From: Escherichia phage HY01
Sequence record: NC_027349.1
Direction: 5' to 3' (one strand)
Length of the DNA: 64,000 nt
Shown here: positions 15,696-36,235 of the stretch, in pieces
How the letters are laid out: every line of letters starts with the position of its first letter
How positions within the stretch are numbered: the stretch's first letter is position 1
Translations under genes and position numbers: made by a program
The notes under the pieces: generated by a model
Database searches by the model: none
Told to the model about the DNA's origin: nothing
Seen by the model: only the letters and a program-made list of their open reading frames with translations

Positions 15696-15868
15696 CAGTC
15701 TTCAATGAAAACTTGTGCCAGGAATTCGTGTTCATCTTGAATTTGTTTATATAAAGCCATTACAGCATTTATATTAGAGCTATCTACTTTAAGCTGATAA
15801 GCATACCACTCGTATAAATTAATTAAAGCTTTTTGTCGTCTAATAAATTCTTCTTTGGATATTTTCAT
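15695..15868 (-). CDS. hypothetical small protein
   Basis: 57-aa ORF translated by hand; ATGA overlap with the next ORF; coordinates approximate. Confidence 0.3.
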   Translation of the reverse strand: MKISKEEFIRRQKALINLYEWYAYQLKVDSSNINAVMALYKQIQDEHEFLAQVFIED

Positions 15869-16074
15869 TTTGAATGCTCTATAATTAATTTTAAGGCTTC
15901 TTCACTGACAAAAATTTCATCAGGACCTTCTTCTACAACCCAATCAACCCAATCAACCACACGAAGCTGATTAGATAAGAGCTCACATACGAGCTCCTTG
16001 TCATAATTTTTAAATAGCTGGTCAATACGTTTCTTGCGGGCTTTCTTAAGCTGACGTTTATTTAAACGAGCCAT
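15865..16074 (-). CDS. hypothetical small protein
   Basis: 69-aa basic ORF. Confidence 0.4.
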   Translation of the reverse strand: MARLNKRQLKKARKKRIDQLFKNYDKELVCELLSNQLRVVDWVDWVVEEGPDEIFVSEEALKLIIEHSK

Positions 16075-16592
16075 TAATAACCTCGGTCTTGACGAGCGAA
16101 GTTTTCAGCATTTTTCAGATAATAAAGTTTAAAGATTTCTTCAGCAGTAAGGCCGAGACCTTGGAACATGTTCAGAACGAAATGAAGAATATCAATCATT
16201 TCGAATTTAATTTCCAACTGGTCTTGAGGAGACAAATCAGTAATTAGAGTTTCACGGCGTTCACCATGCTGCGACTTCCAAGGCTTCCATACAGCAGATG
16301 CATCTTTTTCACCATTGCTCATACCACCAAGAGAAGTCAGAAGTTCGCGGAATTCATCATCAATGTAATCTTTCTGATTACGCAGCCAATCAACAACTTC
16401 GCCTGCAGTAGCCAAATCATCAGGATGACGGTTATATTCAGGTTTATCTTTAGCTAAACGAACCTGCAAAGATTTCTGCATATCAAGCATAACTTGCAGT
16501 GGGTCTTTTTCGTCACCGAGAATATCCCAGTATTCATTTTGAGCTTTATCAGCGCCTTCGATCAGTTGCGAGCATTCATTAAAGTAAGCCAT
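16074..16592 (-). CDS. 56: dCTPase/dUTPase (MazG-like NTP pyrophosphatase)
   Basis: MAYFNECSQLIEGADKAQNEYWDILGDEKDPLQVMLDMQ... matches T4 gp56; true start is the internal Met (ORF track extends upstream to 16685). Confidence 0.88.
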   Translation of the reverse strand: MAYFNECSQLIEGADKAQNEYWDILGDEKDPLQVMLDMQKSLQVRLAKDKPEYNRHPDDLATAGEVVDWLRNQKDYIDDEFRELLTSLGGMSNGEKDASAVWKPWKSQHGERRETLITDLSPQDQLEIKFEMIDILHFVLNMFQGLGLTAEEIFKLYYLKNAENFARQDRGY

Positions 16593-16626
16593 TATTTTTC
16601 CTTTCAATTCATGGGTTAGTAGATTA

Positions 16627-16652
16627 ATTATACAATAAATATATAAAGCAAT
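16627..16652 (-). promoter_or_regulatory. MotA-dependent middle promoter for gene 56
   Basis: minus-strand MotA box ATTGCTTTA followed 11 nt later by TATAAT. Confidence 0.55.
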
Positions 16653-16663
16653 AAGGAGGACAT

Positions 16664-16864
16664 ATGGTACAAAAATTAATGGCACTTGTTAATGCCATAA
16701 AAGGTAATAAAAAACGTATAGCTTTTACTATTTCTGCTATGATAGGAATTTTACTCTGGAATTTTGTTTTATCACCAATTGCTATTGCTCATGGTGTTAA
16801 TATTCCAGTAATTACTCTTGATACATTCGTAGATTTAGCATTTGCTTTAGTTGGGTTAATTTAA
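16664..16864 (+). CDS. putative small membrane protein (two hydrophobic segments); only plus-strand candidate
   Basis: 66-aa ORF filling the 56-61 intergenic region, preceded by AAGGAGGA 5 nt before ATG; overlaps a minus-strand middle promoter, so it may be fortuitous. Confidence 0.3.
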   Translation: MVQKLMALVNAIKGNKKRIAFTISAMIGILLWNFVLSPIAIAHGVNIPVITLDTFVDLAFALVGLI

Positions 16865-20726: not shown

Positions 20727-21083
20727 TTAAAAGAATTTAAATTTTTTCTTTGACCTTTTATTAAATGCATCTTGTAGTTGCATTGTAATACATTTTTCTA
20801 CATGAGGAGCTAACTCAGCTTTTCTTTCTTGGTCAAGAACAGCAAAGTCCATTACGACTTTTCCATCAACCCAATCTAATTTTGTCACATACACAATGTG
20901 TGTAGAACCATCTTCTAGTTTAATGACAATCTCCTGGATAACATTTTCCATGGCAGATTTAATTATCTTAAGAGATTCATTAAAAAGACGTTCTTTTCTT
21001 TCTTCTTCCCCCTCCGAAGAGGGGGATTCGTCGATAATTTCTAAATCTAAATCATCTTTATTCATTAAATTCTTCCATATCAC
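20727..21083 (-). CDS. 40: gp40-like head assembly protein
   Basis: 118-aa ORF between uvsX and 41; contains an internal GC hairpin. Confidence 0.55.
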   Translation of the reverse strand: MIWKNLMNKDDLDLEIIDESPSSEGEEERKERLFNESLKIIKSAMENVIQEIVIKLEDGSTHIVYVTKLDWVDGKVVMDFAVLDQERKAELAPHVEKCITMQLQDAFNKRSKKKFKFF

Positions 21084-22239
21084 TTAACTGATCTAGGTCA
21101 GTTTCTAAATCAGCTGCTGATTTACTTTTACTTTCTGGAGATTTAAATTTTTCAACCTTTGAGTTAATCAATTCATCAACTTCAGCTTCAACAATTTCAT
21201 TACTATCAATAGCACCTAATTGATAAGCACGTTTAATAGCATCTCGGAATGGCTGATGCTTAAATAAAGGACCCCAGAATGTAGTGCAATTGGTATCTTT
21301 TGCACGCCAAGATTTTTCTTCGCGAATCATCTCGCCGGTTTCTTCATCAAGAAATTCACGAGCATACCAGCCATTTTTAGGTTTTACTACAAATCCTAAT
21401 TCAAGAGCCATGTCTAACAATCCAGAATAAGGATCGATACCACCGTCAAATTTAACATCAATAAAGAATTTACTTTTTTCTTTGACGGTACGAGATTTTT
21501 CTACATTTAGAACAAATTGATACCCCTGAAGATCAGAACCATCTTTAATCTGACGCTTACCGATAATGAATACAGTATCAGCCGAATACATTACGCCTGT
21601 ACCACCTGTCATCACGGTTTTACTAAACATTTCAATTGTTTCAATTGTATGGTTAACCGCAACACATGGAATGTTTTTAATACTAAAATAAGGAGTAACA
21701 ATACGGAATAATGACTTCAGTGATTTAGCACGAGTCATATCTGCCACAGATTTTTCATTCAAGGCATCTTCCGTTTCTTTCTTAGAAGCCATATTACCGA
21801 TTGAGTCGATGAATACAATAACTTTTTCACCGCGCTCAATAGCTTCAAGCTGATTCACCATATCAATTTTCAGTTGTTCAACTGACTGAATTGGCGTATG
21901 AATTACTCGTTCCGGGTCAACTCCCATGGATCGCAAATAAGCTGGAGTAATACCAAATTCGCTATCATAGAATAAACAAACCGCATCAGGATATTTGTTC
22001 AAATACGCCGCAACCATAGTCAAAGACATATTTGATTTAAAGTGTTTAGAAGGACCTGCAAAAATGGTTAAACCAGACTGCATACCACCATCAATCGCGC
22101 CAGAAATAGCGATATTAAGCATTGGGATTTTTGTACGAATTACATCCTTTTCATTAAAGAATTTAGATGTAGTCAGTTCAGCAGTCATTTTAGAAGTGGA
22201 AGCTTTAATCAAACGGGATTTTAAATCTGCAATAGACAT
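21058..22239 (-). CDS. uvsX: UvsX recombinase (RecA-like)
   Basis: 393 aa with Walker A GPSKHFKS; C-terminal half matches T4 UvsX as recalled, N-terminal part diverged. Confidence 0.93.
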   Translation of the reverse strand: MSIADLKSRLIKASTSKMTAELTTSKFFNEKDVIRTKIPMLNIAISGAIDGGMQSGLTIFAGPSKHFKSNMSLTMVAAYLNKYPDAVCLFYDSEFGITPAYLRSMGVDPERVIHTPIQSVEQLKIDMVNQLEAIERGEKVIVFIDSIGNMASKKETEDALNEKSVADMTRAKSLKSLFRIVTPYFSIKNIPCVAVNHTIETIEMFSKTVMTGGTGVMYSADTVFIIGKRQIKDGSDLQGYQFVLNVEKSRTVKEKSKFFIDVKFDGGIDPYSGLLDMALELGFVVKPKNGWYAREFLDEETGEMIREEKSWRAKDTNCTTFWGPLFKHQPFRDAIKRAYQLGAIDSNEIVEAEVDELINSKVEKFKSPESKSKSAADLETDLDQLSDMEEFNE

Positions 22240-22316
22240 TCATTTTTTCCATAGGCATCATTATATTTTCCTCACTGGTTAAAGATAGGGTAATTATAAC
22301 ACAATAAATTTAGGCA

Positions 22317-23165
22317 TTAATCAACTGCTATTGGATGAATAGCATTAAACTTATGAAACGCTTCTGATTTTTCTTTGCGCGAAACACACATGCGAAGAAC
22401 CTTTAATGGCTCGTCTTCTTCACCTAATGATTTTCGTTTTTCAATATTAGAAGTTTTCCAACGAGCTTGCTCTGGAAACTCTCTATTGATTTGCTCAAGC
22501 GCTCTATTATGTTTAGAATTACTACGAATTGAACTACATCCACCGGGGGCTTGTGCTTTTCCAGATACAACTAGATATTTGAACAAGGCCAAATGTGGAT
22601 AACCTTGATTAATTAAATTGAGAAATGCATACATATCTTCGCATAAATCAATTTTTCCATACCCAATTTGTTCTGTTGTAAGTTTTCCGAGGTCATACCA
22701 GGTATTCGTGAATCCATACGAATTTTCACGATAATTACCCCAAGATGAAGTAATTTTAAAAATAGGTAGACGAGCATGACCATGATAATACCCGCAATCC
22801 ATTGCATCTTCCACGTATTGAATCAATTCATAGAACTGTTCACGGGTTAATTGATTAATTTTATCTACGCAGCGACGATCATCTTTCTTTCGCATTGAAC
22901 TCATACGAATAGTAGTATCATCATCAATCATCCAAATTCGTTGACCTGCATACATATCAGTAATCGCTTTACGAGTTCCAGCAATTCCATTTACATCGTC
23001 GGGAATAGTTATAATTTTAGCTCTAGACCCATAAGCATCATAATAAGCTTTTTCTTCGTGTTCACGTACTACAATATGTGGTTCATAATCAGATGGAAAC
23101 ATATCAAGGGCAGAAACTGCCCCTACGCGTTGATAGCTTGGAATTACAAATTGAATCATTTCCAC
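22317..23165 (-). CDS. putative DNA-modifying glycosyltransferase occupying the T4 beta-gt locus (not T4 beta-gt)
   Basis: 282-aa ORF MEMIQFVIPSYQRVGAV... between uvsX and 42; does not match T4 beta-glucosyltransferase (351 aa) as recalled. Confidence 0.45.
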   Translation of the reverse strand: MEMIQFVIPSYQRVGAVSALDMFPSDYEPHIVVREHEEKAYYDAYGSRAKIITIPDDVNGIAGTRKAITDMYAGQRIWMIDDDTTIRMSSMRKKDDRRCVDKINQLTREQFYELIQYVEDAMDCGYYHGHARLPIFKITSSWGNYRENSYGFTNTWYDLGKLTTEQIGYGKIDLCEDMYAFLNLINQGYPHLALFKYLVVSGKAQAPGGCSSIRSNSKHNRALEQINREFPEQARWKTSNIEKRKSLGEEDEPLKVLRMCVSRKEKSEAFHKFNAIHPIAVD

Positions 23166-23896
23166 TCACCATTATAATCTTTTTTCGCAATATGAGTTTC
23201 GCCAGTTTTCCACCAATGGTCAACCAAATAAAAATGACGAGAATACACATGAAGACTTCCGACATTCCATATAATGGAACCTGCTTTATACTGACGAGTT
23301 GAATCACCTGCATTCAAATCAGATACTAATTTATCTAGTACGTATTTTTGCCATGCATAATCATTACGGAATCCGAAGACCACGTCATTTGAGCGCATGT
23401 TTACTACTGCATTGACTTTCTTATCACGAATCAGGTACTGTACTGTATTCGTACACATGAAATCTGACATACCATCTTTGTTGTAGTCAAACTGCATGGA
23501 TGGACGAGTATAAATCATGATACCACGTCGAGAATCAGGATTTTGACCAAGTTCAGCTAAACACATATCATACTGAGCATAGTTATCTTCTGACCAGATG
23601 GCCCAACCGTAATTCGAATTAATTTCGCCTTTAGAAGATGCTACCTGCTGCCAAATCTTTGGTGTTTCACCTGGAATATCTTTAACAAACAGACTTTGAG
23701 ACTTATACCATTCAAGTTCACGCTGAATGTATTCATCATTAAGAGCGCCAAAAATAAAAGGTTCATCTGCTACAAATGATGCACCAATAATTTCAATAGT
23801 TTTAACACCGGTTTTATCAATTACGAAATCTTTTTCCTTTAATGCAAGACCCAAATCAAGACGGATTTCTTCAACTGTCATATAATCGTTAATCAT
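23156..23896 (-). CDS. 42: dCMP hydroxymethylase
   Basis: 246 aa, thymidylate-synthase-like fold; size and position match T4 gp42. Confidence 0.92.
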   Translation of the reverse strand: MINDYMTVEEIRLDLGLALKEKDFVIDKTGVKTIEIIGASFVADEPFIFGALNDEYIQRELEWYKSQSLFVKDIPGETPKIWQQVASSKGEINSNYGWAIWSEDNYAQYDMCLAELGQNPDSRRGIMIYTRPSMQFDYNKDGMSDFMCTNTVQYLIRDKKVNAVVNMRSNDVVFGFRNDYAWQKYVLDKLVSDLNAGDSTRQYKAGSIIWNVGSLHVYSRHFYLVDHWWKTGETHIAKKDYNGEWK

Positions 23897-24699: not shown

Positions 24700-24957
24700 T
24701 CAAATACAAGTAGTAATTACTCCAGTAGTGCTTACACAGGTATTACCTAATTGAACACCCAACGTTCCATTAGTATTCATATGAAGATTATCATCAATTT
24801 TTGTTGATACTTTACCATTCATGTGAATAATAGTATTAGATTCAATCACATTCTGAGTGTCATTTTCAATATCAATAAATGGAACAGTTGCTAATGCAAC
24901 TAAACACGCTGCTAATGCAACTAAACACACTGCTAAACAACCATAAACAATTTTCAT
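24700..24957 (-). CDS. small secreted/lipoprotein-like protein with tandem-repeat signal region
   Basis: 85 aa from the internal ATG (MKIVYGCLAVCLVALAACLVALA...); encoded by a 21-nt tandem repeat. Confidence 0.4.
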   Translation of the reverse strand: MKIVYGCLAVCLVALAACLVALATVPFIDIENDTQNVIESNTIIHMNGKVSTKIDDNLHMNTNGTLGVQLGNTCVSTTGVITTCI

Positions 24958-24980
24958 TTCATTCTCCAAATCCGCATCAG

Positions 24981-25011
24981 TTGATAGTTGTATAGTACCA
25001 CGGAAGAACAG
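24981..25011 (-). promoter_or_regulatory. early promoter with conserved -10/leader module
   Basis: GTTTAC-18 nt-TACTATA followed by CAACTATCAAC leader shared by several promoters. Confidence 0.5.
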
Positions 25012-25109
25012 GGATGTAAACAGTTTTGCGAAAAAATTTTTAATGAATTCCAGAGGTCCAGAATCATCTATTTTTCCTAAGTATAGATTTATATTACTTG
25101 TATGAAAAA

Positions 25110-25125
25110 GGGACCCGGAGGTCCC
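25110..25125 (-). terminator. intrinsic terminator hairpin after gene 43
   Basis: GGGACC-loop-GGUCCC followed by U5. Confidence 0.65.
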
Positions 25126-25138
25126 TAGATTTATTCTA

Positions 25139-27835
25139 TCAGCCAAACAGGAAGTCTAACGAAGCTTTTTCCTCATAGTCCATACCTGCCGATTCACACA
25201 TGCCTGCAAGCGGTTTAACAAACGATTTTTGGAACAAAGTTGAGTAGTCAATCCAAGACAGTACATCAGAACGAATTTCTTTTGGAAGTTCCGTACCCGA
25301 CGGCCAAGCAATGCACTTGTCACCAAATGGATTTCCCTCACGTAATGGAAGAACCATTACCTTATTTCCATCCAAAATTGGAGCTACACCTAAACCACTA
25401 ACAGCTCGACGATAAGTTAGCACCCCACGAATGTGGAACGGGCATTTAAATCCTGGCCAACCTTTATCGTCATATTTCGCTATATCGTTCGCGGTTTTTA
25501 CTTCAGCAATAACTTTATAGTCAAGTTGACGATATTCTTTCTCAAAGTTCTTGTAGTATTCTTGTACAGACTCTTCGCCTTCCTGAAGAATACGACGAAT
25601 ACTTTCTTCGAGAGCTTCTTGTACTGCTTTTGGTGTTGAACTCTGCTGAGTTTCCATACCCATGATTTTTAGATGTGGTTCAGCAAATCGCTTATCTTCC
25701 ATATCATAAACGTTCAGAGCATAACGCTTTTTCGCTTTCCAAAATCCACCAACACCCTTTGAACCAAGTGGAGGGCAAGAAATAGCTTCACGGTCCATAT
25801 GCATCAGATGCTCGCGGTTATTCATATAATCACATAACTCACGATATGCAACATCAATCATAGGTTCCATCTTTTTCTTACCGAACTGATTCATGAATTC
25901 AACTAAATCATTTTGTTCTTTAAAGCGGTCAAGACCTACTTTTTCAATAACTTTATCTACACAAACATATACCGAATCAGTATCACCTGCTGCGATGAAA
26001 TCTTCGCCATCAGTTCCACATACTTTATTCAGATATTCATTAATTTTACGAGCAATCCACTGAATACCAACTTGACCGAAAATTGTGATAGCAGTAGCAT
26101 TTCGCAAATCATAGTAGCGGAAATGAATATTACCAAGAGCACCATAAAGACTGTTAATAAGAATTTTACGGTTCAGCTGATTTGTGTTAGCAAGTGTAGC
26201 TGCTTTTTCACATTCTTCGATCAGACTATTAAGAACAGATTCAGTGTAATTCGATAATTCGTTTAAGAAATCATCACTGAACTTAACATATCGTTCAACT
26301 TCTGGTTTAGTTGAGCAAGACCCTGCACCTTTCATAATAATCTTTTTAATAGCTTCGGCATTCATTTCTTCAGCGAACATTTTCTTTTTCCAATCTTTAC
26401 GCTGGAAAAATACTTTAGCGATTTCCTTTGGAATGATACCTTCTTGGTGCTTATCATACATCCATCCATTCGGAGAGCAAGAATATTCATCACTTGGCTT
26501 AGGAGCTGTTCCTGCGATATATTCATGAATTGGATGAACTTTAAACTGTCCACGAATAGTCTCAGGACTAATGTTAACCTGACGAATAATACTTGGATAC
26601 AGAGACGTCAAGTCAAAACTCATAATGTATCGACGAGCAATCGCTTTAGGTTCAAACACAAATGCACCTGGAAAACTTTGTTTAACGTGCGAACCTTGTT
26701 GAGGAATAACCTTGTGTTCACCTTTCAACGAGTTAAAAATAATAGCATCCCAAGTTTTAATAGGACTCATTACACCAGAAAAAGGCATTTTAGCATAATA
26801 AGACATACTTAAAACTAGATCGATAAACCCACGAATTTTATCAATTGCTTGAACTGATTCTACGTCAATGATGTTATAACTAATGTATCGTTGATGATTA
26901 GTCTCACGAAGTTTATTAATAGGACCATCATACGGTAATTTACCTTTTTTGGTTTCATGTTGAGCAACCGATTCCAAAGAGAACGATGGCAAATTAGTAA
27001 ATGCGAATTTCTTGTACAAATCTAAATAATCAAGAATAGATACGCCATCAATAGAATAAATTTCTTTGCTACCGTACATATTTTGAATTAGTTTAGATTT
27101 TACTCGACCGATTGGAGAGAAGCGTTTCATACTGCGTTCACCGAGAACCATTTTAACGCGATTCATGATATACGGAACGTCAAATCCCTCAATATTCCAA
27201 CCGGTAAAAATAGCAGGTCGTTTCTGTTCCCAGAGATTAATATATTCCATGAGCATATCACGCTCATTATCAAATGGCATATAAATTACTCGGTCAAGAA
27301 TTTCTTGAGGAACTTCATCACCACCTTCACAGTCAAGCTTAGCAGCTAACTTTGCATCCCATTTTGATACTGAACCGTACATTGAATTCAACAAATCAAA
27401 GACGTAAAAACGGTCGTCAATTGAATCATAATGAGTGATAGCATCAATTTCATATTCTGCTTTCATTGGGTCAGGAAATTTATCGCCAGTAACCTCAATG
27501 TCGCAGTTAGCTACACGAACAAATTTTCGGTCATAAACAATTTCTGAACCATATGTATCACTGATATAAGCGAGTTTAAAATCGTTCATACCGAGAGCTT
27601 CGAGACCGATGTCTTCCATTCGTTTCATCCAATCTCGTGCATCTTTCATTGATGGAAATTTTTGAGGAGCACAGTTTTTACCATAAATGTCTTTGTATTT
27701 TGACTCTTCCTTACAATGCCTAAACATAGTCGGAAGATATTCTACTTCACGAGTACGTTCCTTTCCGTTTTCATCAATGTAACGCTCAACAATGTTATTT
27801 CCGACTGTTTCGATAGAGATATAAAATTCTTTCAT
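25139..27835 (-). CDS. 43: DNA polymerase (family B)
   Basis: 898 aa with exonuclease and polymerase motifs (DIE, YGDTDS); matches T4 gp43 length. Confidence 0.96.
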   Translation of the reverse strand: MKEFYISIETVGNNIVERYIDENGKERTREVEYLPTMFRHCKEESKYKDIYGKNCAPQKFPSMKDARDWMKRMEDIGLEALGMNDFKLAYISDTYGSEIVYDRKFVRVANCDIEVTGDKFPDPMKAEYEIDAITHYDSIDDRFYVFDLLNSMYGSVSKWDAKLAAKLDCEGGDEVPQEILDRVIYMPFDNERDMLMEYINLWEQKRPAIFTGWNIEGFDVPYIMNRVKMVLGERSMKRFSPIGRVKSKLIQNMYGSKEIYSIDGVSILDYLDLYKKFAFTNLPSFSLESVAQHETKKGKLPYDGPINKLRETNHQRYISYNIIDVESVQAIDKIRGFIDLVLSMSYYAKMPFSGVMSPIKTWDAIIFNSLKGEHKVIPQQGSHVKQSFPGAFVFEPKAIARRYIMSFDLTSLYPSIIRQVNISPETIRGQFKVHPIHEYIAGTAPKPSDEYSCSPNGWMYDKHQEGIIPKEIAKVFFQRKDWKKKMFAEEMNAEAIKKIIMKGAGSCSTKPEVERYVKFSDDFLNELSNYTESVLNSLIEECEKAATLANTNQLNRKILINSLYGALGNIHFRYYDLRNATAITIFGQVGIQWIARKINEYLNKVCGTDGEDFIAAGDTDSVYVCVDKVIEKVGLDRFKEQNDLVEFMNQFGKKKMEPMIDVAYRELCDYMNNREHLMHMDREAISCPPLGSKGVGGFWKAKKRYALNVYDMEDKRFAEPHLKIMGMETQQSSTPKAVQEALEESIRRILQEGEESVQEYYKNFEKEYRQLDYKVIAEVKTANDIAKYDDKGWPGFKCPFHIRGVLTYRRAVSGLGVAPILDGNKVMVLPLREGNPFGDKCIAWPSGTELPKEIRSDVLSWIDYSTLFQKSFVKPLAGMCESAGMDYEEKASLDFLFG

Positions 27836-34789: not shown

Positions 34790-35992
34790 TTATTTTGTAA
34801 TAATGTCAAACTGCTCTTTAAAGCAGAAGCTTGAATCTTGGTGCTGATACAAAAATTCATAAGCTTTTTCACGTTCACGGTCATAAAGAGCTCGGTCAGA
34901 TGACAGTTCTTTAATACGTTCAAATGTTGATTCCATGTCATTTTCATCAAACCAAACGATACCGCTATCATGTGAAATTAATGGAGTATTATCAACACGA
35001 AATTTTAAATTTTCGCCAGTAGATTTCCAAAATACTGGAATTGTTCCGCATGCACCAAGCTCGAGATGAGTGTATTCTAAAGAACGTTGTAGATATTTTT
35101 TATCTAATTTACTCAGCTGATAACCAAATCCGGATTTACTCATGCGTTCAAGCATTTCGCTATTTACATAACGATCGAGAATTTGCGTTGGCAAATTAGG
35201 AGCAATTTTAATTTGGTCTACTTGATGAAGACGATAATACTCGTATGGAATTCCTTTTTCTTTAATAGGAATGAATGCTGGAGAACGTTCCAGACCTTCC
35301 ATAATAGTACTTAGTCCTGCAGGTTTAAGATGTTTTTCGTGAAAATCAAACATCTGATAAAAGCCTTTCCATGTAGTAGTACGACCAATCCAACGGTTGA
35401 TATTCATGTTAATTTCAGAAACATCTTTCCAGTAAGTTGATCGAACCTTCGCAATATCCATAGGAGGCTGAAAGTTATATACAGTCGGTGCTTCTTCAAT
35501 ATCATCAAACAAAGAAACAGTTTCCGGATACCATTCTTTCATTAAAACTTTATTAAAATCACCATTATCAGAATGACTAAAAATAACATCAGCTCGACGA
35601 ACAGTTTCTTCTAATCCCAAATTTCGGCGCAAAGAAAGAGAAGAATGGTCATGTTGATAAACTACAACACGAACTGAAGGTTTAATGTTATCAATAATTT
35701 TTTTATAGTTATTAATAGTGTCTTCTTCGACTGAAGTAGCAGGAACTGAATTGATAATTAGAATATCACAATCATTTACCAGCTTAAGTGTTTTATCGTA
35801 TTCTTTTGCCAATAAAACCGGAATTGAAAATGATTTATAATCATGCGCGCAATTACGGGTAAATGATTTATCTTTAGCATAAACCAAAGTTACTTCATGA
35901 CCATTTTTAATAAACCAATCACGTTGCTCAAGAGAAAATTTAGTTACACCGCAACCTTCAAGACCTCGAGCCATAAAAATGCATACTTTCAT
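34790..35992 (-). CDS. a-gt: DNA alpha-glucosyltransferase
   Basis: 400 aa; near-identical to T4 alpha-gt as recalled (MxxCIFMARGLEGCGVTKFSLEQRDWF...). Confidence 0.9.
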   Translation of the reverse strand: MKVCIFMARGLEGCGVTKFSLEQRDWFIKNGHEVTLVYAKDKSFTRNCAHDYKSFSIPVLLAKEYDKTLKLVNDCDILIINSVPATSVEEDTINNYKKIIDNIKPSVRVVVYQHDHSSLSLRRNLGLEETVRRADVIFSHSDNGDFNKVLMKEWYPETVSLFDDIEEAPTVYNFQPPMDIAKVRSTYWKDVSEINMNINRWIGRTTTWKGFYQMFDFHEKHLKPAGLSTIMEGLERSPAFIPIKEKGIPYEYYRLHQVDQIKIAPNLPTQILDRYVNSEMLERMSKSGFGYQLSKLDKKYLQRSLEYTHLELGACGTIPVFWKSTGENLKFRVDNTPLISHDSGIVWFDENDMESTFERIKELSSDRALYDREREKAYEFLYQHQDSSFCFKEQFDIITK

Positions 35993-36016
35993 TTAATATC
36001 CTCATTGTTTTGGTTT

Positions 36017-36042
36017 ATTTTACCAAAAATTTATAAAGCAAT
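36017..36042 (-). promoter_or_regulatory. MotA-box middle promoter upstream of alpha-gt
   Basis: minus-strand ATTGCTTTA then TAAAAT about 11 nt downstream. Confidence 0.45.
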
Positions 36043-36058
36043 ATAGGAGCCGAAGCTC

Positions 36059-36232
36059 CTATCCGCACAATACGCCATACAAAGGCTCGTTAGAGCTTCT
36101 AAATTTTATACGCTTATGTGTTATAGTTCCTTCTGCTTTAGCTTTATCATGGGACTCTTTAAAGCGTCTCATCATTTCTACTTTAGAGGAACGAATTTTA
36201 TTATAATCTATTTCAGAAGTCTGGGTGTTCAT
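36059..36232 (-). CDS. hypothetical small protein
   Basis: 57-aa ORF translated by hand; coordinates approximate. Confidence 0.3.
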   Translation of the reverse strand: MNTQTSEIDYNKIRSSKVEMMRRFKESHDKAKAEGTITHKRIKFRSSNEPLYGVLCG

Positions 36233-36235
36233 CTT

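Follow-up and report, generated by a model that had tools for sequence, protein, structure and literature searches.

A T2/T6-type ggt gene very probably occupies the beta-glucosyltransferase locus of Escherichia phage HY01

Identity of the gene

The gene between uvsX and gene 42 in the 64-kb window (the whole stretch of DNA analysed) is very probably ggt, also called ba-gt, an ortholog of the beta-glucosyl-HMC-alpha-glucosyltransferase gene of phages T2 and T6, and the predicted product of its enzyme is gentiobiosyl-5-hydroxymethylcytosine (gentiobiosyl-hmC). There is evidence for this assignment from close relatives and from family profiles. The coding sequence (22317..23159, minus strand, 280 codons plus the stop) specifies a protein that is identical to T2 ggt (AYD82639.1 in MH751506) at 275 of 280 residues, the five substitutions being R11H, S23T, K92R, I101V and P251S. 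The T6 enzyme, known as ba-gt, g-gt or TAGT (YP_010067197.1), has the same family, length and locus, and is identical at 273-274 of the 280 residues (6-7 differences). The protein matches PHROG 842, 'beta-glucosyl-HMC-alpha-glucosyltransferase', over residues 2-277 at 3.5e-89. It also belongs to Pfam family PF20691 (TET-associated glycosyltransferase, TAGT): residues 5-209 align with profile positions 2-205 of 205 and score 38.7 bits, above the curated gathering cut-off of 27.5 bits, in a match that is distant (E = 1.3e-9). These results bear out the guess in the earlier note that the gene encodes a gentiobiosyl transferase of the T2/T6 type. The T2 and T6 genes were reportedly first cloned in a paper of 1993.

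The gene has been seen before. Its DNA is 100% identical to that of Escherichia phage PEC04 (KR233165, Tequatrovirus hy01), and the surrounding 24.5 kb (12000-36500) is likewise 100% identical to PEC04 and collinear with it. The PEC04 coding sequence, PEC04_0087, is already annotated as "putative beta-glucosyl-HMC-alpha-glucosyl-transferase", and publications already cover the gene itself, the family and fold class to which it belongs, its broad distribution and the synteny with T4 beta-gt. A tblastn search found homologs in 689 phage records. In 471 of these the identity is at least 90%, mostly in Tequatrovirus phages of Escherichia, Shigella, Salmonella and Yersinia, and about 200 homologs at 60-80% identity occur in phages of Klebsiella, Enterobacter and Citrobacter. 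Homologs at 47-65% identity are found in Klebsiella, Enterobacter and Serratia phages, and a database search returned 12 homologs, the lowest at 29% identity. Within the 64-kb window, no second copy of ggt was found. The earlier note was right that a different protein, namely a T2/T6-type ggt, sits at the beta-gt locus, but with homologs in so many phage records the arrangement is not an unusual one. Most relatives of T4 have the gene at this position, and the combination of alpha-GT with TAGT has been described as the common state, with T4 as the exception (PMC13216743; PMC13390438).

The databases also contain, as a hypothetical protein from Escherichia coli (ACQ7CD_05985), a partial copy of 156 aa that is 99% identical to the window protein. 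This copy most likely stems from phage sequence within a bacterial assembly and not from a gene of the bacterium.

Start codon and coupling to gene 42

The six-frame list of open reading frames gives a minus-strand ORF of 282 aa at 22317..23165 with a GTG start, flanked by uvsX (21058..22239) and gene 42 (23156..23896). Reading the sequence directly, the third codon of this ORF is an ATG at 23159-23157, and it overlaps the stop codon of gene 42, TGA at 23158-23156, as A-ATG-A (overlap 23156..23159, minus strand). The start of ggt is likely to be this ATG rather than the GTG, because both T2 and the identical PEC04 record are annotated from the ATG. The ORF that the earlier note placed between uvsX and gene 42 is real and is at that locus, but its product, given there as 282 aa, is most likely two residues shorter, at 280 aa. 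Gene 42 and ggt overlap by the same 4 bases in the annotations of PEC04, T2 and T6 (AP018814), and T2 ggt matches the window gene in its 280 aa, in the ATGA overlap and in its position upstream of uvsX. The overlap suggests that ggt is co-transcribed with gene 42 and that its translation may be coupled to that of gene 42. Nothing is claimed about expression signals for ggt beyond the overlap: between 22100 and 24200, promoter-like sites (11 vs 10.1 expected) and terminator-like sites (1 vs 1.0 expected) are at chance level.

The base composition of ggt is that of the neighboring genes. Codon differences from T2 comprise 40 synonymous and 5 non-synonymous changes, a pattern that marks ggt as a genuine gene subject to purifying selection.

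Predicted fold and conserved residues

The window protein was modeled on an 11-sequence alignment; a single-sequence AlphaFold model (pLDDT 41) was set aside. The model is a single-domain GT-A (nucleotide-diphospho-sugar transferase) structure with an acidic DXD-type motif, features that the window protein has in common with PF20691 TAGT proteins and cellular GT2-like GT-A enzymes. The entries in the fold comparison include the catalytic domains of chondroitin, cellulose and hyaluronan synthases, together with TarP, TarS and SpsA, and the top 60 fold matches contain no GT-B enzyme. Two loops, 131-148 and 202-210, have low confidence, which leaves the acceptor site poorly defined in the model. 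The GT-A class agrees with a published, AlphaFold3-based statement on T6 TAGT, which was classed as a GT-A enzyme that groups beside GT2, with alpha-GT and beta-GT both assigned to GT-B (PMC13216743). A PDB sequence search with the window protein gave no meaningful relative (best E = 0.76) and no beta-gt chain at E up to 10, and no solved structure can be detected by sequence.

The 11-sequence alignment, drawn from the 12 homologs of the database search and with identities down to 31%, has 32 invariant columns, among them I6-P7-S8-Y9, R11, D79-D80-D81, D175, G206-G207, S209 and R212. The three consecutive aspartates are encoded by GAT-GAT-GAT (22917..22925, minus strand) and lie at the end of model strand 74-78, a placement typical of GT-A enzymes. 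D79-D80-D81 would be expected to hold a divalent metal and the diphosphate of UDP-glucose; the catalytic base could be one of the invariant acidic residues, for example D175. Formation of a beta linkage by a GT-A enzyme from the donor UDP-alpha-glucose means inversion of configuration. The ggt enzyme is predicted to be an inverting transferase that is metal-dependent and acts via D79-D80-D81.

Two database records of T6 carry lesions in ggt that the window gene does not have. In MH550421 (4138-4980, minus strand), codon 10 is a TAG stop in place of CAA, and the annotated coding sequence begins at an internal Met and specifies 261 aa. In AP018814 / NC_054907 (2135-2974, minus strand), one GAT of the GAT-GAT-GAT run is lost, leaving DD and a protein of 279 aa; this DD version is YP_010067197.1, the TAGT query protein in PMC13216743. 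Such lesions are odd for a phage with 72% gentiobiosylation, and may be due to an error in sequencing, to slippage within the GAT run or to drift in laboratory stocks.

Modification pathway and host defense

What would the ggt product act upon? Gene 42 (23156..23896, minus strand) encodes dCMP hydroxymethylase, the source of the hm-dCMP whose base is later glucosylated; the protein is 96% identical to T4 gp42 and matches PHROG 160. A homolog of gene 56 (16074..16592, minus strand; PHROG 173 at 1.5e-46), syntenic with T4 gene 56, encodes a dCTPase/dUTPase that prevents unmodified dCTP from entering the phage DNA. The DNA alpha-glucosyltransferase that makes the ggt acceptor, alpha-glucosyl-hmC, is encoded by alpha-gt (34790..35992, minus strand; PHROG 2888 at 3.8e-222). 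This gene had been described in the earlier note as T4-like, which is correct in that its product is 91% identical to that of T4, although it is closer still to T2 (99%). With gene 42, the gene 56 homolog and alpha-gt all in the window, everything needed for alpha-glucosyl-hmC is present. The window ggt thus partners the dCMP hydroxymethylase pathway, unlike the TET-associated enzymes of PF20691, which partner a TET/JBP dioxygenase.

In the predicted pathway, gp56 and gp42 would replace dCTP with hm-dCTP, yielding DNA with 5-hydroxymethylcytosine, and alpha-gt would then place an alpha-linked glucose on most hmC residues. With UDP-glucose as donor, the ggt enzyme would attach another glucose in beta linkage at the 6-OH of the first, producing gentiobiosyl-hmC; this beta-1,6 transfer onto alpha-glucosyl-hmC is predicted from the family and the literature, with indirect support from deletion mutants of T6 (PMC11078745) and from HPLC/MS on close relatives (PMC13390438). 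For the gentiobiosyl chemistry, PMC13216743 cites Lehman and Pratt 1960, Kornberg et al. 1961, and Kuno and Lehman 1962.

With the annotation settled, the phage DNA is predicted to contain bare hmC, alpha-glucosyl-hmC and gentiobiosyl-hmC, and not the alpha/beta monoglucosyl pattern of T4. The practical use of the assignment lies in predicting sensitivity to host defenses. When ba-gt/g-gt is deleted from T6, alpha-glucosyl-hmC is all that remains, the sensitivity of the phage to Brig1 rises, and its DNA becomes a substrate of BapA (PMC11078745; bioRxiv 10.64898/2026.02.25.707755). The T6 work shows that gentiobiosyl-hmC resists BapA and the alpha-glucosyl-hmC-specific glycosylase Brig1, while type IV enzymes of the GmrSD/BrxU type still cut it.

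Alternative interpretations

The T4 gene with which ggt might be confused is beta-gt (NP_049658.1; PDB 1JG7), which occupies the same genomic slot next to gene 42. Both enzymes take glucose from UDP-glucose and attach it in beta linkage to hmC DNA of phages (PMC13216743), but the acceptor is bare hmC for T4 beta-gt and alpha-glucosyl-hmC for ggt. Position in the slot between gene 42 and uvsX is all that speaks for a truncated or strongly diverged T4-type beta-gt, and this reading is rejected as vanishingly improbable on both sequence and fold. BLASTP found no similarity between T4 beta-gt (351 aa) and the window protein (best E = 3.3), which upholds the remark in the earlier note that the ORF does not resemble T4 beta-gt, and tblastn did not find T4 beta-gt anywhere in the 64-kb window (best E = 1.5). 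T4 beta-gt has a GT-B fold with two Rossmann domains (PF09198), and the model of the window protein, a predicted GT-A enzyme, does not. Because the fold classes differ, the exchange of beta-gt for ggt at this locus is a non-homologous swap rather than divergence, with ggt, putatively coupled directly to gene 42, in the place of an unrelated GT-B enzyme. An arabinosyltransferase of the RB69 type is also a poor fit, given that RB69 ORF003c (Aat) is predicted to be GT-B (PMC6024577) and that the window protein, modeled as GT-A, is nearly identical to T2 ggt.

Accepting that the gene is a T2/T6-type ggt leaves the specificity and the output of this allele to be considered. TAGT homologs accompany alpha-GT or beta-GT, or occur alone (PMC13216743), and specificity within the family probably varies; the more distant homologs (47-65%) in phages of Klebsiella, Enterobacter and Serratia are in keeping with this. 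A member with another sugar donor, or with bare hmC or beta-glucosyl-hmC as acceptor, would give another modification. Such a change is very improbable for an allele that is 98% identical to T2 ggt and occurs with a T2-type alpha-gt (99%). The five substitutions of this ggt allele relative to T2 are conservative or in variable columns, and close relatives of the phage carry gentiobiosyl-hmC by HPLC/MS (PMC13390438). Those relatives are ten Tequatrovirus phages of the Durham Collection that have alpha-GT and TAGT and do not have beta-GT. All ten contain alpha-gentiobiosyl-hmC, none contains beta-glucosyl-hmC, and gentiobiosyl-hmC makes up at least 40% of their modified cytosines, either ~40% or ~67% (PMC13390438). 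The protein of one Durham phage, vB_Eco_Some, is 98.2% identical to the window protein. The amount of gentiobiosyl-hmC is a separate matter. It accounts for ~5% of hmC in T2 and 72% in T6 (PMC11078745), and because the T2 enzyme is 98% identical to the window protein yet yields so little, the extent of modification cannot be predicted from the presence of ggt. It is possible, though unlikely, that the window ggt is intact and almost silent as in T2, which would leave DNA that is essentially alpha-monoglucosylated with ~25% bare hmC. The residues that separate T2 from T6 send mixed signals here: the window protein has the T2 residues Y40, D55 and R106 (N40, G55 and H106 in T6) and the T6 residues R11 and P251. 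Strong purifying selection on the gene argues against near-silence, as does the level of at least 40% in all ten Durham phages. In that collection, Tequatrovirus phages without a Dam-like gene have about two-thirds gentiobiosyl-hmC and those with one ~40% (PMC13390438). A homolog of the T4 Dam DNA adenine methyltransferase was not found by tblastn in the whole window, including 16593-16860 (best E = 0.58), which would place this phage outside the lower-gentiobiosyl group; this is a weak correlation and does not amount to a mechanism. The interval 16593-16860, which separates the gene 56 homolog from primase gene 61, is the T4-syntenic place for Dam. A pattern new relative to both T2 and T6, produced by this allele itself or by its combination with this alpha-gt and no Dam, is very improbable; examples would be another sugar, another acceptor or near-complete gentiobiosylation. 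If gentiobiosylation were near-complete, the few residues that differ could be used to map what determines it.

Other features of the region

In T4, beta-gt and uvsX are separated by segA, a homing endonuclease gene, whereas the window has a 77-bp spacer between ggt and uvsX (22240..22316, minus strand), evident from the ORF list and the sequence. Neither the ORF list nor the PEC04 annotation shows counterparts of segA, mobB and segF, which are also homing endonuclease genes of T4, at the syntenic sites (22240-22316, ~35993-36235 and ~15700-16073, respectively). In T4, mobB adjoins alpha-gt and segF adjoins gene 56; the corresponding sites in the window hold short spacers or small ORFs only.

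A hairpin at 23105-23125 (minus strand), with a 9-bp stem, TAGGGGCAG-TTT-CTGCCCTTG, lies inside the 5' end of ggt, ~35 nt past the start codon. It was flagged as terminator-like, at chance frequency, and is kept in T2 and T6 except for one base.

A small hypothetical ORF at 24700-25146 (minus strand) lies between imm.1 and the DNA polymerase gene 43, and PEC04 annotates only 24700-24957 of it. T4 does not have this ORF, and the T2 counterpart (RB51ORF048) is 252 nt. The protein encoded by the window ORF, in which a hydrophobic stretch is duplicated (ACLVALA-ACLVALA), has the look of a small membrane protein.
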